The position numbers and the translations under genes are program-made. DNA of 35,862 nucleotides from Candidatus Micrarchaeota archaeon. GTDB lineage: Archaea; Micrarchaeota; Micrarchaeia; Norongarragalinales; SBBD01. Shown here piece by piece: positions 10,436 to 29,811 of the stretch. The DNA is taken from assembly GCA_038046605.1 (NCBI GenBank), contig JBBSVW010000010.1, positions 1 to 35,862 of the forward strand, in the 5' to 3' direction. Under the pieces are notes generated by a model. That model was not told the DNA's origin. It was given only the letters and a program-made list of their open reading frames with translations, and ran no database searches. The first letter of the stretch is position 1, and every line of letters starts with the position of its first letter.

Positions 10436-10609
10436 TTTTTTTCCAAAAGCCTTTTTTTCCCCTTTTTTATACCTATTTCTTCTAATCTATACTGGGAATC
10501 AAGTGGAATGCATATGGTTTGAAAAACCGTTGGTTTATTTCCCCAAATGGCATCCCCATAATCCCATTCATTCAATAGTTCCAATTTTTTTTGTCGTTTT
10601 GTGATTGAT

Positions 10610-11155
10610 ATGGCCGAAGTAAAAAAGGACGATTACACCGAAAAGGAAATTGCGCAGCTATTTGAAAAAGCCGGCAGGATGGGCGCAATCCTTGCACTTT
10701 TACATTTTGATTCCTATGGCAAGGACAAGGAGAATGTGCGCGCTTCCCTAGTTGACCTTGTTTCCCGGATAAACGCCGAAAAGGGTGTCATCTACTGCCG
10801 GGGCGAAATTGAGGAAGTCATTGAAACGGAAGGCGAGAAGGACAAGGGCTTTACCACCTACACGGAGGTGAAAGTGCTCTTTTCGAGCTTTGATATTGCA
10901 ATAGGCACCTGCCTAAAATTCGGTCCCATTGCAATTGAAGTGATCGAGCCAAATGAACTTAGGATGAACCAGGAGATGATGCAAAATACCCTCCTAAATG
11001 CCTCCAGTATCTCCCAGCAGTTCACCAACTATTTCATGACTAAACTCCTGAAAAAGGAGGATTTGGAGGAATTCCAGGCAAATCTCCAAAAGCGTGTTGA
11101 CAAGGGAAAGGAACTGATGGGAACTTCCAAGGAGAAGCCGAAAGCTGAAGGATAA
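10610..11155 (+). CDS. Conserved archaeal hypothetical protein
   Basis: Long ORF with native-looking codon usage; C-terminal GPIAIEVIEP motif; no function recognised. Confidence 0.75.
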   Translation: MAEVKKDDYTEKEIAQLFEKAGRMGAILALLHFDSYGKDKENVRASLVDLVSRINAEKGVIYCRGEIEEVIETEGEKDKGFTTYTEVKVLFSSFDIAIGTCLKFGPIAIEVIEPNELRMNQEMMQNTLLNASSISQQFTNYFMTKLLKKEDLEEFQANLQKRVDKGKELMGTSKEKPKAEG

Positions 11156-11207: not shown

Positions 11208-11429
11208 AGCTTTGCACCTAAACTCTTATTTTTAGACCACTTTAAGTGCAGGATTTTCACTTTGGGTGCAAATCAGGCTTAATTCCCAACTCATGCATTT
11301 TCTGAATAAAAACTGTAATATTGTAAGCGATTATTACCGCGCAAAATCATAATTGCTGCATTCATAGCCTTATTTTTCCTCTAAGCACATACCGCGCAAA
11401 AGCAGGTTTCCGGCTTTAAGTGCAAATCT
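11208..11429 (-). mobile_element. 222-bp MITE with DDE transposase C-terminal remnant
   Basis: TIRs agctttgcacctaaa / tttaagtgcaaatct; minus strand reads IAYNITVFIQKMHELGIKPDLHPK*; flanks ccgcccgta and ccttcccta match 6/9. Confidence 0.75.
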
Positions 11430-11530: not shown

Positions 11531-12217
11531 TTGATTGATATTATGCAGCAGCTCGAACTATCCGAATTCGTAAAGGAGCCCTCCTGGAGGGAATTGCTAC
11601 TTGAGTCCATTGCAAACGAGCAGATGAACCCCTGGGAAATCGACCTAGTGAAGGTTGCCGATGCCTATTTGCAAAAGGTAAAAGAGCTCCAATCAATGGA
11701 CCTTCGCATCCCTGCAAATGTCATACTTGCCTTAGCCCTCCTCCTCAATTACAAGGCGCAGGCGCTTCAATTGGAAGAACCCGAGCCAGAACCGGATCCA
11801 TTTGTCCGCCCCTTTGAAAACGAGGCAATTCCGGATTTGGTATTCAATCCAAATCTGCCACGCTCACGCACAATCACGCTAAACGAACTAATTGAAGCCG
11901 TGGAGGAAGTCATGCACTACGAGAAGCGCGAGCTGATCCCAAGGGCAAAGGCAGATCCGCTCCACATCGAGCTTCCAAAGGAGAACTTAAATGAGCGGAT
12001 GGTTGCGGTGCATTCCCGCGCCCTCAAAATGAAGGATAGCGAAAACATGGTGCTTTTTTCGGAACTGGTAAAATCCTTCAACGGACATGGCGAAGGGAAG
12101 GCGGAGCTTTACGCATTGCACCTGCCGCCGGTCCTCCACCTGATTCAGGAAGAAAAGATGTTCGCCTGGCAGGACCGCACTTTTGGGGAGATATTCCTTA
12201 AGGTTTTGCAGAACTGA
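11531..12217 (+). CDS. scpA: Segregation and condensation protein A (kleisin)
   Basis: MNPWEIDL, LLNYKA, RTITLNELIEA, WQDRTFGEIFL; start may be ATG 11543. Confidence 0.9.
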   Translation: MIDIMQQLELSEFVKEPSWRELLLESIANEQMNPWEIDLVKVADAYLQKVKELQSMDLRIPANVILALALLLNYKAQALQLEEPEPEPDPFVRPFENEAIPDLVFNPNLPRSRTITLNELIEAVEEVMHYEKRELIPRAKADPLHIELPKENLNERMVAVHSRALKMKDSENMVLFSELVKSFNGHGEGKAELYALHLPPVLHLIQEEKMFAWQDRTFGEIFLKVLQN

Positions 12218-26191: not shown

Positions 26192-26438
26192 ATATTTGAT
26201 GGACCCATAATTCTGATATTGCCAGTGCCACATTTTATTCCCTATTTGACGTTTTTTTCCGCCATTAGCCCGCTTAGCAATATTCGAAATCAACCGGCTT
26301 TGCACATAAACTGCCTCTTGCACACAAACCCCTAAGGCTGCACATAAATAGCACTATGGTGGTACGTAATCACTATATTTTGCCAGGTTTCTCACTCAGT
26401 TATTTAAATTTTTCTGTATAGAATAATTATGATTTAAA

Positions 26439-26606
26439 ATGGGGAGCCAAAGAGTAGTGCTTGAGACCACCATATATCGGACCACTGATAAAAAGAAACT
26501 CAAAGGTGGTATCAAGGAATACGAATACGGCGCTATTAATTTAAGGGATTCGAAGCTAAAAAATTTTGTTGGTAAACGAGTAAAAATCAATCTCGATATA
26601 GAGTGA
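26439..26606 (+). CDS. 55-aa basic protein, AbrB/DUF2080-like (not in ORF track)
   Basis: MGSQRVVLETTIYRTTDKKKLKGGIKEYEYGAINLRDSKLKNFVGKRVKINLDIE; tttaaat box upstream; GTGA overlap with the next ORF. Confidence 0.7.
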   Translation: MGSQRVVLETTIYRTTDKKKLKGGIKEYEYGAINLRDSKLKNFVGKRVKINLDIE

Positions 26607-27592
26607 CAAATATGGCAACAGAACCAGAAGATAAATCGAAAAGCAGTGAAGAGCAAAAGCCGATAAAAATGGATGATTCCGCATTACCCCTTAATAAGCG
26701 GGTTTTATTCGAAATCGATCAAATAGCTAACGAAATAGTAAAATTACGGGGGCGTCCTCTCCTGTTGATGTTTTATAGCCATACAGCTGGCAAAATAATG
26801 CCTGCCGATTTGAATTACTTAGAGGAAGGCGTTTTTGGTGATGTTGAAAAATTAGCGGGCCTCGACCTTATCCTCCACACTCGTGGCGGAGATGTGAGTT
26901 CATCCTATCGTATTGCACAATTAATAAGAAGCAAATGCCTAAATTTGAACGCTCTGATTCCGATTTATTCTTATAGTGGAGGCACAGTAATATCTCTTGC
27001 TGCTGATGAGATTTTGATGAATCGAGGTACGTCTCTAATTTCGCCTATTGATGTTCAACTCAATAACGATAAGGAATCAATGTCCCTCTTAAATTTTGAT
27101 AAATTTATAGAATTTTTAAAAGAGACTTCAAATTATTTCGAATTTGAAGACGATGATCAAAGAGCAAAATTTATTTCTGCACTTATGGAAAAGCTCGTAG
27201 AACGAATCGATCCACTCCAGATCGGCGAATTCTATCGTCTTAGAGGGTTGCAAAGCTTTTATGCAAAAACGCTTTTAACAGAATATATGTTCCGTAATGA
27301 TTCGGATAAAGAGAGAATTGCGAATGATATTGTAACTCAATTGACAAGCAAATGCCCTACCCACGATTTTGATATTGATTTTCAAATCGCATTGGATATA
27401 GGACTAAAAGTGGGTGAACTCGAGAAGAAAACTTACAAGTTGGGCAAGCAACTGATTAACAAATGTGTGTTAGCTAAACGAATGGGCATCGTTTGCGATT
27501 ATATTGATAGCAAACATAATTGGAGGATGCCCTTCTTTAAACTTTATGGAGTAACTACTTCCGCTACAGGTGAGGACAATGAGAAAAAATAA
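26603..27592 (+). CDS. SDH-family (SDH_sah) ClpP/crotonase-fold serine protease
   Basis: LDLILHTRGG, YSGGTVISLAADEILM (Ser), SPIDVQ (Asp), THDFDI (His); start GTG 26603 or ATG 26612. Confidence 0.88.
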   Translation: MTNMATEPEDKSKSSEEQKPIKMDDSALPLNKRVLFEIDQIANEIVKLRGRPLLLMFYSHTAGKIMPADLNYLEEGVFGDVEKLAGLDLILHTRGGDVSSSYRIAQLIRSKCLNLNALIPIYSYSGGTVISLAADEILMNRGTSLISPIDVQLNNDKESMSLLNFDKFIEFLKETSNYFEFEDDDQRAKFISALMEKLVERIDPLQIGEFYRLRGLQSFYAKTLLTEYMFRNDSDKERIANDIVTQLTSKCPTHDFDIDFQIALDIGLKVGELEKKTYKLGKQLINKCVLAKRMGIVCDYIDSKHNWRMPFFKLYGVTTSATGEDNEKK

Positions 27593-27743
27593 TGAATCAG
27601 CGGGCAAGTCTGAATACTCGAGCAATAATCTAAGTCCTACCGAAGAGCAGCAGTTTGAAAAATTCAGGAAAAAACAAAAAATACTTGCCGAAGAGTATAG
27701 TTCAACTAATCTATTGTTGAGTGGTGCTGCAAATAAACAATAA
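27579..27743 (+). CDS. 54-aa peptide coupled to the protease (not in ORF track)
   Basis: MRKNNESAGKSEYSSNNLSPTEEQQFEKFRKKQKILAEEYSSTNLLLSGAANKQ; aggtgagg RBS; 14-nt overlap with the protease end. Confidence 0.7.
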   Translation: MRKNNESAGKSEYSSNNLSPTEEQQFEKFRKKQKILAEEYSSTNLLLSGAANKQ

Positions 27744-27769
27744 AATCCTCATTCGAAGAACTTTTTTAC

Positions 27770-27958
27770 TTCAAGCGCAAGTTTGAAAACAGGCTGTTTT
27801 CAAGAAAGGAGGTTGCGCAGACAAACGAAGCTTTGGCAAAAGTGCTTTGTCACAATATCGTTGTCCTAATCAAAGAATCAGGAGAGCATGGATTTCAGAT
27901 TGATTTCAATGCTTCTGCACACAAATTACCCTCTGTGCACATTAAGGGAAGGGTTTAA
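27770..27958 (+). pseudogene. C-terminal remnant of a DDE transposase (IS5/ISNCY-like)
   Basis: FKRKFENRLFSRKEVAQTNEALAKVLCHNIVVLI...; no start codon; runs into the right TIR. Confidence 0.85.
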
Positions 27959-28035
27959 GTGCAAGGCTAAATCAACCGCAACCATTAAATAGCGCCTTTC
28001 ATTTCAACTTTAATCACACAATTTAAGGTGATTTA

Positions 28036-29811
28036 ATGGCTAAGAGGAATCCTGTGTCCAAAACGAACTATTGGTTCATAATTGCATGCGTTGCAATTGC
28101 ATTGCTTGCAGTAGTTGCATTCTCATCGTGGAAAAACTACCAGGCGCAAACAAGTTACAAGGCGGATTCCGATTACCGGGCAGGGAACCTTTATGGGCAG
28201 GCGATACCGACCAAAAAGCCAATTATTGTCCAGCAGTGCTCGGATGGCACATTAGTTGGCAAATGTTCAGCTAACAAGCCCTATTTTTGCAATTCACAAA
28301 AGCAAAAGGTTGCTGATTCCGTCAGATGCGGATGCCCAGGTGGCCAAATACCAGTTACCGGAGGAGGATGCAGCGCAGTTGCTCCTTATGAGATGAAAAC
28401 CTACATTGAGGATGATTTGGATTACCAGCTTGACCGCGTTCGATATACGACCGGTGGTTCTAGATTTTACACGCAGGATAGCTCATTTTGGCCAGGCGTT
28501 GGTCCCAAATACTTGACAGCAGATAGTGCTGCTGCCTTGGCGTTGCCAAATAACGGCATTTTGTATACGGATCCATCAATTTCCTTTAACGAGGTCCAGC
28601 ACGCGATGTTATTTGCGTATACTCATTATGATACGACCTCTAAAGCAGTTCAAGCACAATATGCTAAGACCGGCTATGAGGCTGTATTTCAGCCCGGGCT
28701 TCCACTTTGCCTGGATACCACAAAATCCGTTGCCAATTGCCCTTCATCCAGCCTTCTAAAGAATTCTAACGTGAAAATATGGCTTCTTGGCTCTTCTTGG
28801 TATGTGCGCGATGTACAGTTATCAAATTATAACATAACGAACATGACCTTGGTTAGAGAGGATGGTAAGACACTAAAGCTTAGCGAAAACAAGGAAATCG
28901 AGGTCATAGGGCAATCAGGATCTGCAAAGAATTGGAGGGTGAAATTCATTTCATCCTTATATCCGAATTCGTATGTGACGGAATCGGTCTATGCGATCCG
29001 CATTTACAATGACATTGACCAGGTCTACAAGACTCCAATAACCCAAACCTTGAATCCTGGCGAGGCAATATTGATAATAAAGTACCCTGCCGGCTATCGG
29101 TTAAATTACCTTGGGATGGAATCAACCGATTATGATTCTTTGCAATTTTCTGTGCAAAGAGTGCAAACTTTCACCAACACAACGGGAGGAACAGTCACAG
29201 GAAACTTCATGTATATCCTCTCAGGCAAGAGCAATGCGTTCCAATACAATGGCGTGAGCAGGCCGGATGTATATGTGCTGCTTGAGCCATTCCAATCATG
29301 GCATAAGGTGAATTCGGTATGGTACCTTGACAACAACGGTTACCTGGCAAAAGCGGGCGCTTCAGTTGTTGGCCAGGTAGTTTATCATTACAAATCCGAT
29401 GAACAGGCCTTCATCTTCATCAACTCAACCAACTCCACCGGCGGGTTCCTTGGACAGTTGAACTGGACGATTATCCAGATTCCCGAGATCACAGAGGATG
29501 GAGGTGGCACATCTGCCTATCCGACAACAAACTGGCATATAAATTTCGTTTACGACAAAAACCTGGACCAATTGGTAAACAGTCCACAAGCACCAGTTTC
29601 GGATAAAGTGGGATACAGCTTTGGGGGCAATATTTACTTGGGAACCCAGGAACCGGGCTTTGTGACAAACCGCGGAACCATATTCCAAGCCTTCTCTCCC
29701 ACATCCGCCTCATTTGGCTATCCATTGAATGTCGTCCATGCGCGCTACACCCTCCAATACTACGGCGATGACATCGTATGGGTACCGGGCGGTTATGTCA
29801 ACCAGAAATAG
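28036..29811 (+). CDS. Membrane-anchored surface protein, S-layer-like, with Cys-rich N-terminal module
   Basis: aggtga RBS; N-terminal TM; CSDGT..GKCS.NKPYFC...CGCP...C; Asn/Thr/Tyr-rich with several NxS/T sequons. Confidence 0.75.
   Translation: MAKRNPVSKTNYWFIIACVAIALLAVVAFSSWKNYQAQTSYKADSDYRAGNLYGQAIPTKKPIIVQQCSDGTLVGKCSANKPYFCNSQKQKVADSVRCGCPGGQIPVTGGGCSAVAPYEMKTYIEDDLDYQLDRVRYTTGGSRFYTQDSSFWPGVGPKYLTADSAAALALPNNGILYTDPSISFNEVQHAMLFAYTHYDTTSKAVQAQYAKTGYEAVFQPGLPLCLDTTKSVANCPSSSLLKNSNVKIWLLGSSWYVRDVQLSNYNITNMTLVREDGKTLKLSENKEIEVIGQSGSAKNWRVKFISSLYPNSYVTESVYAIRIYNDIDQVYKTPITQTLNPGEAILIIKYPAGYRLNYLGMESTDYDSLQFSVQRVQTFTNTTGGTVTGNFMYILSGKSNAFQYNGVSRPDVYVLLEPFQSWHKVNSVWYLDNNGYLAKAGASVVGQVVYHYKSDEQAFIFINSTNSTGGFLGQLNWTIIQIPEITEDGGGTSAYPTTNWHINFVYDKNLDQLVNSPQAPVSDKVGYSFGGNIYLGTQEPGFVTNRGTIFQAFSPTSASFGYPLNVVHARYTLQYYGDDIVWVPGGYVNQK

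Follow-up and report, generated by a model that had tools for sequence, protein, structure and literature searches.

A ClpP-fold protease and its small coupled partner as transposon cargo and possible conflict module in an archaeon

A 35,862-bp stretch of DNA from a Candidatus Micrarchaeota archaeon (NCBI GenBank assembly GCA_038046605.1, contig JBBSVW010000010.1; the whole stretch is called the window below) carries three tightly packed genes between positions 26439 and 27743. The window is the complete contig C10 of a parent archaeal genome of 1.64 Mb, in 106 contigs and 90.7% complete. The functional unit within these genes appears to be a two-gene operon, where a serine protease of the SDH type, with a predicted ClpP fold, is followed by a translationally coupled helical partner that belongs to a family of microproteins of 33-72 amino acids (aa). 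Conservation of the arrangement makes it very probable that protease and peptide work as a pair. The pair lies in a decayed DDE transposon, behind a small gene, ORF1, that belongs to the transposon, and it might be an instrument of genetic conflict, either in virus defence or in addiction. Loci, genomes and contigs are designated by our own L, G and C numbers.

All three genes are on the forward strand. ORF1 (26439-26606) codes for 55 aa. The protease gene begins at ATG 26612 and ends at 27592, giving 326 aa, which is the form retained in the public gene call, or 329 aa if translation starts at GTG 26603. The partner peptide extends from ATG 27579 to 27743 (54 aa; 57 aa from GTG 27570). The stop codon of ORF1 (TGA, 26604-26606) overlaps GTG 26603 or, alternatively, stands 5 nt upstream of ATG 26612. 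The ATG of the peptide is placed 14 nt inside the protease gene, and it is preceded, still within protease coding sequence, by a Shine-Dalgarno-like motif, aggtgagg, at 27568-27575. These coordinates and overlaps bear out the three open reading frames (ORFs), the overlapping layout and the ribosome-binding site of the peptide that the initial annotation of the window had put forward. It had also reported that the two small ORFs were absent from its ORF track: this is true of that track only, as both are annotated as genes in a public protein collection (P0023 and P0024).

Comparison of loci shows the 54-aa ORF to be a real conserved partner of the protease. We fetched 33 loci that encode relatives of the enzyme: 29 metagenomic ones, the window among them, 3 genomic ones, from metagenome-assembled genomes of Pacearchaeota and Nanoarchaeota, and 1 viral one. 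Three loci with truncated or partial matches (L024, L028, L030) were left out of the count, as was L005, which has only 89 nt past the protease stop, so that 29 loci remained. An ORF was counted when it began with ATG on the same strand, coded for 33-100 aa and started between -80 and +30 nt from the protease stop. Of the 29 loci, 28 have an ORF of this kind behind the protease, against 13 of 80 controls (other ORFs of at least 200 aa from the same DNA); it comes with a Shine-Dalgarno-like motif in 22 of the 29, against 4 of the 80. The sole locus where it is missing, L026, has a truncated protease gene, while L005 shows a matching downstream ORF that runs past the end of its contig. The presence of a small overlapping downstream ORF beside protease homologues had been set as a test beforehand, and the pairing has come through it. 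Once near-copies are allowed for (L004/L008/L010, L006/L007 and L017/L023), the set comes down to 25 distinct peptides, of which one is partial at a contig end. Purifying selection acts on the reading frame of the peptide: nonsynonymous divergence (pN) is lower than synonymous divergence (pS) in 14 of 15 pairs, for instance 0.22 versus 0.68 in L006/L011 and 0.23 versus 0.65 in L015/L016. Furthermore, the similarity matrices of peptides and proteases are correlated (Mantel r 0.80, a value that none of 2,000 permutations reaches), which shows that the two have long been inherited together.

The window peptide combines an N-terminus of low complexity, a core that is predicted to form a conserved amphipathic helix (..EEQQFEKFRKKQKILAEEY..) and a variable tail. 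Across the family the core is charged and built around a mostly kept glutamine (..F-L-x-x-Q-K/E-x-h..); the tails are unrelated. The window peptide is 32% identical to that of L003. A word-based search with it returned only itself, and an Atlas search gave scores below 0.8. An SsrA-like degron had been considered for its terminal LLLSGAANKQ and was dropped, because tails are unrelated across the family.

The protease matches the Pfam family SDH_protease (PF01972) with 59.1 bits, for a gathering cut-off of 31.3 (E 4.6e-16), the alignment being confined to residues 87-156 (numbered, as throughout, from ATG 26612). PHROG 11747 also matches, at E 2.2e-36. At E <= 1 Pfam gives only SDH_protease and NfeD1b_N, so that the canonical ClpP (S14) family, CLP_protease, is unmatched. 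With 73.1 bits against the 250 asked for by the equivalog model NF047768 (Clp_like_SDH) of NCBIfam, the enzyme is probably a relative of that family and not one of its equivalogs. A Ser-Asp-His triad is typical of PF01972, and in an alignment of 23 sequences Ser122, Asp147 and His251 are invariant; they are the putative catalytic residues, and the motifs initially picked out in the window are thus confirmed. The complete set of invariant columns comprises T90, G92, G93, P117, Y121, S122, G123, G124, T125, P145, I146, D147, L222 and H251. The AlphaFold2 (AF2) model is confident, with a predicted local distance difference test score (pLDDT) of 87.8 and a predicted template-modelling score (pTM) of 0.83. 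It has a ClpP-like core (residues 27-158) and a helical domain (159-290); confidence is low for residues 1-19, at an N-terminus of hydrophilic character. Foldseek against the Protein Data Bank (PDB) retrieved no close solved structure for this model: SppA (3rst, E 3.3e-5), ClpP and the 1510-N stomatin-specific protease came up at E 3e-5 to 6e-4, and template-modelling scores (TM) to ClpP chains are 0.45-0.57 for a sequence identity of merely 11-16%. Close homologues are few, just 6, at 35-52% identity, among 5.8 billion protein clusters. Because of these family scores, of the invariant residues and of the ClpP-like fold of the model, the enzyme is best placed on the SDH branch of the ClpP-fold peptidases, where it is divergent and probably part of a small subfamily.

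Cargo status of the module, suspected from the start, is supported by inverted repeats, a target duplication and a piece of transposase. A 10-bp sequence, AAATCAACCG, is present at 26287-26296 and again at 27969-27978 as a perfect direct repeat, and would be the duplicated target site; 10-mers that recur 1,500-1,900 nt downstream are found at just 42 of 33,862 window positions. Between the two copies an element of 1,672 bp starts with a left terminal inverted repeat (GCTTTGCACATAAA...) and its adjoining end (26297-26357, forward strand; motif exact at 26297-26310). It finishes with a right terminal inverted repeat, TTTAAGTGCAAGGC, at 27954-27967 on the reverse strand, extended by a T to 27968; L052-L054 have this end, too, behind the stop of the transposase. 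The stretch 26297-26357 is 82% identical to element ends in G004, in G002 and in a copy of the type of a miniature inverted-repeat transposable element (MITE) on contig C23 of G000. On the forward strand, 27767-27958 encodes what is left of a DDE_Tnp_1 transposase of 403-416 aa, namely its last ~63 codons. This remnant is 94% identical in amino acids, and 92% in nucleotides, to full-length copies in the same-genus genomes G006 and G004. The intact transposase scores 84.3 bits against PF01609, and it is found, often in several copies, in genomes of the same genus and family. The element is thus a DDE transposon with cargo, non-autonomous because its transposase is reduced to this remnant.

It is also a strain-specific insertion. 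At 0.374, its GC content is lower than that of the window (0.468), and the protease gene was found in 0 of 40 relatives (6 of the same genus, 4 of the same family and 30 of the same order). Same-genus genomes keep the genes on either side of it (Na+/H+ exchanger, YggS-like, a 591-aa protein and DHOD) in synteny. By a tblastn estimate the YggS-like gene is separated from the 591-aa gene by ~157-370 nt in three of these genomes; here the distance is 1,844 nt. The two junctions of the transposon are both spanned by contigs from a second sample, and a joint corresponding to an empty site did not turn up. The 591-aa protein next to the insertion (28036-29811) belongs to no Pfam family; it recurs with 41-47% identity in the corresponding position of three same-genus genomes, and G002 lacks it.

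Related copies support the way the ends of the element were assigned. The MITE-like derivative of G000 (~100 nt, contig C23 ~11567-11660, L050/L058) has both terminal repeats, four TGCACAnAAA repeats and its own 10-bp flanking duplication, CCTCAAACGG. A ~6.07-kb copy in G006 (L059, C7:111000-117600) has the same ends between flanking GCCAAAGGA repeats; its cargo consists of a C5 methyltransferase (Dcm), Vsr and genes without assignment, and its leader gene is of ribbon-helix-helix (RHH) type. In G002, a ~4.5-kb copy (L060, C17:8500-13600) carries radical-SAM and T5orf172/MUG113 proteins. Terminal repeats of more distant transposase relatives were not located. Solo left ends lie 7 and 69 nt past the right end of a full copy (L053 1417-1478 and L054 1357-1419), which suggests nested or tandem insertion, or else a preference for insertion beside existing ends. 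Elsewhere in the window, a second inverted pair of motifs resembling the transposon ends (GCTTTGCACCTAAA at 11209-11222 and TTTAAGTGCAAATC at 11415-11428) may delimit another MITE-like copy of ~220 nt (11209-11428), between ORFs 10601-11155 and 11531-12217.

ORF1 had been labelled AbrB-like, and this label finds no support: neither Pfam, nor PDB sequences, nor folds provide a match. PF04014 (AbrB/MazE/SpoVT) was absent at E <= 1 from ORF1 and from 13 homologues, none of which showed a convincing Pfam family; a PDB profile search with ORF1 gave chance-level T-cell receptor matches (E 0.7 or worse). The AF2 monomer, a beta-hairpin with a short helix (pLDDT 74.9, pTM 0.40), had no Foldseek match at E <= 0.001, its best one (E 0.11) not being AbrB, a comparison that would not reach a fold formed only in a dimer. 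True MazE/AbrB genes do exist upstream of the protease in L014 and L016 (PF04014, 31.9 and 30.9 bits). ORF1 is dissimilar to them, and BLASTP yielded no alignment between ORF1 and the L014 protein. What emerged instead is a real gene family. A word-based search with ORF1 returned only itself, and relatives came to light solely by full phmmer over 1.84 billion representatives: 13 at E <= 1e-3, of 55-77 aa and 43-58% identity, with the motif KVYxTTDKKKLKxGxKxYEYGTISIRDPxLxxYIGKxVxV. In the Atlas, ORF1 scores 0.92 to a cluster without a name. The family is present in 22 of 401 genomes of our phylum sample.

The caveat that this first gene may belong to the transposon backbone proved sound. In 11 of 19 other loci the immediate neighbour of the ORF1-family gene, divergent from it, is a transposase related to the window remnant (9 full matches and 2 N-terminal fragments; 10 of 18 without L073, from an unpublished genome), and the protease is found in none of the 19. 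The cargo behind it, read on the strand of the ORF1-family gene, varies. An N6/N4 DNA methyltransferase follows it in L065, L066, L072 and L077, accompanied in the last three by a convergent gene of 160-168 aa; L067 has a GNAT acetyltransferase, L074 a DUF4352 protein, L076 a DruA protein (PF14236, E 4.8e-90; PADLOC DruA, E 2.3e-104), while L078 and L079 have convergent parts of type I restriction-modification (R-M) systems. Because the family adjoins the same transposase and precedes varying cargo without the protease, ORF1 is the backbone leader of a cargo slot, belonging to the transposon and not specific to the protease. At the head of the slot stands a small gene that points away from the transposase, of the ORF1 family or, in G006, RHH-like. 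Taken together (L059, L060, L064-L083), this archaeal DDE_Tnp_1 family has the look of a vehicle for defence genes.

Two signals read from the sequence may complete the operon, both on the forward strand: a TATA-like box, ttatttaaat (26400-26409), ~30 nt 5' of the ATG of ORF1, possibly the archaeal promoter of a leaderless transcript, and a T6 tract (27762-27767), 19 nt past the stop of the peptide, as a possible archaeal terminator. The window also encodes PCNA and PcrB/GGGP-synthase genes.

How protease and peptide are surrounded elsewhere was surveyed in the 16 loci with sufficient flank. A transposase is directly adjacent to the pair in 8 of them, and four Pfam DDE families are represented: IS240-like in L006 (weak), L014, L016, L031 and L033, DDE_Tnp_1 in L018, IS1-like in L020 (weak, in one stretch) and IS1595 in L022. 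L015 has an integrase. L034 (3887-5978) comes from a viral contig of IMG/VR: an HK97-type capsid gene precedes the protease, a gene for a ThsB-like TIR protein comes after it, integrases lie nearby, and a 38-aa ORF starts 25 nt past its stop. Upstream genes vary by clade. The nearest relatives of the window have none, and L014 and L016 have the MazE/AbrB genes just mentioned. In L020, L021, L026, L027 and L029 a basic protein of 74-82 aa ('GGLKGGKARA..AAxARW'), with the motif ..NPAAVALGRLGGLKGGKARA..L..E.R.EIA..AA.ARW and without a Pfam family, is encoded upstream, its gene overlapping or abutting the protease start.

We propose the following account. The pair occupies the cargo slot of a DDE transposon, behind the small leader of the latter, in an element that later lost most of its transposase. 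The protease would be the effector of a mobile conflict module, acting in abortive infection against viruses or in addiction. The peptide would bind it through the conserved amphipathic helix and gate its activity, most likely in the manner of an inhibitor or antitoxin, so that loss or displacement of the peptide would free the protease. Several lines of evidence lead to this picture: the pairing is kept, the active-site residues are invariant, the setting is mobile and the slot holds defence-type genes elsewhere, to which must be added the transposases, the viral contig with its ThsB-TIR gene, the upstream MazE/AbrB genes and the bacterial cassettes that PMC13532340 lists as defence. We would put a conflict function at about an even chance, and the account as a whole, binding and gating included, slightly below that; the particular role of inhibitor is doubtful. 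Equally doubtful, if attractive, is a broader proposal, namely that DPANN-type archaea and other uncultured lineages have in this pair a new system of abortive infection or addiction based on a protease, moved by undescribed 'slot' transposons whose ORF1-family leader drives interchangeable cargo (R-M, DruA, GNAT or the protease pair), and where a fast-evolving helix microprotein would gate a ClpP-fold protease.

A number of observations weigh against our account. Four of the 16 loci (L008, L011, L012, L013) have housekeeping surroundings (hydrogenase and DAHP synthase, ribosomal proteins, topoisomerase, FEN1) and are free of mobile genes in the vicinity. A helical downstream ORF is missing from three SDH-type proteases of phages, which have a small gene upstream instead. 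Mean column identity in the peptide family is low, 22%, no antitoxin or DNA-binding domain was recognised in the peptide with Pfam, PADLOC and libraries of the NCBIfam/PHROG type, and the peptides of L009/L012 are the lone exception to purifying selection (pN 0.38 versus pS 0.32, over 35 codons). The Mantel correlation is no proof of interaction, because adjacent genes are inherited together anyway. ORF1 is co-directional with the transposase remnant here and divergent in other genomes; the element must consequently have undergone rearrangement, for which an internal inversion and a deletion have to be assumed, and the coupling of ORF1 with the protease may be secondary. Finally, PADLOC found no match for the three window proteins, a blank that is uninformative for such cassettes, because PADLOC 2.0 contains no model for these proteases and also misses six of six proteins of phage or plasmid cassettes (four SDH-type proteases and two small neighbours), its DruA control being found.

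The loci in housekeeping surroundings suit an explanation that does without conflict altogether. The protease would then be an ordinary accessory or housekeeping enzyme and the peptide a small subunit for assembly or an adaptor; the gene would sometimes travel in mobile DNA simply because it is dispensable in small genomes rich in insertion sequences (IS). That PF01972 proteins are widespread, and unstudied in the literature searched, fits this idea, as does the lack of a PADLOC match. A mere housekeeping role accords poorly, however, with a patchy, strain-specific distribution, with the recurrence of the pair beside four transposase families, an integrase and on a viral contig, with MazE-type genes upstream of it in two loci, or with a slot that holds R-M, DruA and GNAT genes elsewhere. 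We regard this explanation as unlikely.

Protease-substrate pairs such as CalpL-CalpT and Craspase-Csx30 are known in defence, and the peptide could likewise be a dedicated substrate or pro-form, cleavage of which would release an active fragment, be it a signal, a toxin or a regulator. The tight translational coupling and the co-inheritance would be expected then as well, and the sequence of the peptide reads as a disordered N-terminus followed by a helix. Against this, a conserved cleavage motif is missing: in an alignment of 22 peptides the start methionine is the only invariant column. The peptides are, moreover, just 33-72 aa long, with tails unrelated between clades, and bear no export or leader feature. 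A substrate role is accordingly quite improbable. Least probable of all, and very unlikely, is the remnant of an archaeal virus or provirus that would have kept a ClpP-like capsid maturation protease and a small scaffold-like helper, as lambda has gpC and Nu3: the PHROG 11747 match, weak matches to head-maturation protease families, the position of the L034 relative just downstream of a capsid gene and the nearest viral folds (Foldseek against BFVD ranks giant-virus 'serine dehydrogenase proteinase' models first, E 3.4e-11, TM 0.54/0.60) speak for it, but the head-maturation matches stay far under the cut-off (24.6 bits versus 120), genes for capsid, portal or terminase are absent from the 1.67-kb element and from the vicinity of the protease in the other 15 long loci, and the element is of the DDE transposon type, not a provirus.

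If the conflict module that we favour exists, it would add to the study of protease effectors in immunity, an active field in which a literature search of limited scope brought up no mechanistic study of the SDH-type ClpP-fold proteases. Be that as it may, this protease family gains a defined and conserved two-component unit, with 25 natural variants of the microprotein. A cassette type listed for bacterial phage satellites would extend to archaea with small genomes, where very few defence systems have been characterised. The cargo slot of the transposon, shared with R-M, Druantia-type and other defence genes, would offer a possible route for the passage of immunity genes among these archaea. 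The pair spans only 1.1 kb, and its toxicity, rescue and binding are readily testable for this reason.

It remains to place the pair among known systems. FS_HP_SDH_sah, the cassette it resembles, reportedly stems from work by Fillol-Salom et al. in 2022 (Cell 185:3248). PMC13532340 names FS_HP_SDH_sah, a cassette of a small protein and SDH_sah, among the anti-phage systems of DefenseFinder. Both this system and the window pair have two genes, one for a small protein of no known family and the other for a PF01972 ClpP-fold protease, and both lie in mobile DNA; the match of the window protease to PF01972 supplies the SDH_sah component. Examples of the system are reported from bacteria, in phage satellites and prophages, whereas the window pair is archaeal and transposon-borne. 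The pair would be an archaeal, transposon-borne variant of the FS_HP_SDH_sah type, likened to it by its PF01972 protease and small neighbour. The initial annotation had presented the module as a candidate undescribed one. This has to be qualified, since bacterial cassettes of this composition are already listed; the archaeal form on a transposon is distinct from them.

The proteases of the phage and plasmid cassettes compared are ~24-30% identical to that of the window. Phages of Klebsiella, Shewanella and Porphyromonas have their small gene upstream of the protease, while in the window it is downstream. In the Klebsiella phage this gene codes for 71 aa and runs into the start of a 331-aa 'SppA protein', beside XRE/ImmA; in the Shewanella Mu-like phage a gene of 90 aa precedes the protease; that of the Porphyromonas phage adjoins HicAB. 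In an E. coli phage-plasmid (NZ_CP081794.1) the 'serine protease' is an SDH-like moron flanked by the gene of the Q antiterminator and the lysis genes; a Ser/Thr/Asn-rich ORF of 59 aa (L061 2860-3039), left without annotation, overlaps the protease stop by 8 nt. The small genes of these bacterial cassettes, the 59-aa ORF included, are unlike the helical window peptide. Tai systems were considered as a renamed form of the satellite protease system and set aside: the words protease, SDH, ClpP, serine and peptidase are absent from the text of PMC11364771.

The window pair also has much in common with type II toxin-antitoxin modules, being a compact coupled gene pair in mobile DNA, patchily distributed, with a small partner that evolves fast. 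Reversed-order modules of this type, higBA and hicAB, put the toxin first. The present small partner differs in having no DNA-binding domain recognised by the libraries, and the 'toxin' would be a ClpP-fold protease, of which we know no example in established toxin-antitoxin families. With the SDH-type proteinases (PF01972; NF047768; PHROG 11747 and 21683) the enzyme shares a score above the Pfam threshold, the Ser, Asp and His residues and a predicted fold like those of ClpP, SppA and 1510-N. The subfamily of the window stands apart by its partial Pfam alignment, by its score below the equivalog cut-off and by an apparently obligatory small downstream partner. As for the vehicle, IS derivatives that carry cargo are familiar as transporter IS elements and unit transposons. 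The archaeal family resembles them in being made of a DDE element with inverted repeats, a target duplication and passenger genes; it differs from them by a fixed slot, headed by a small leader and filled with interchangeable cargo of the defence type.

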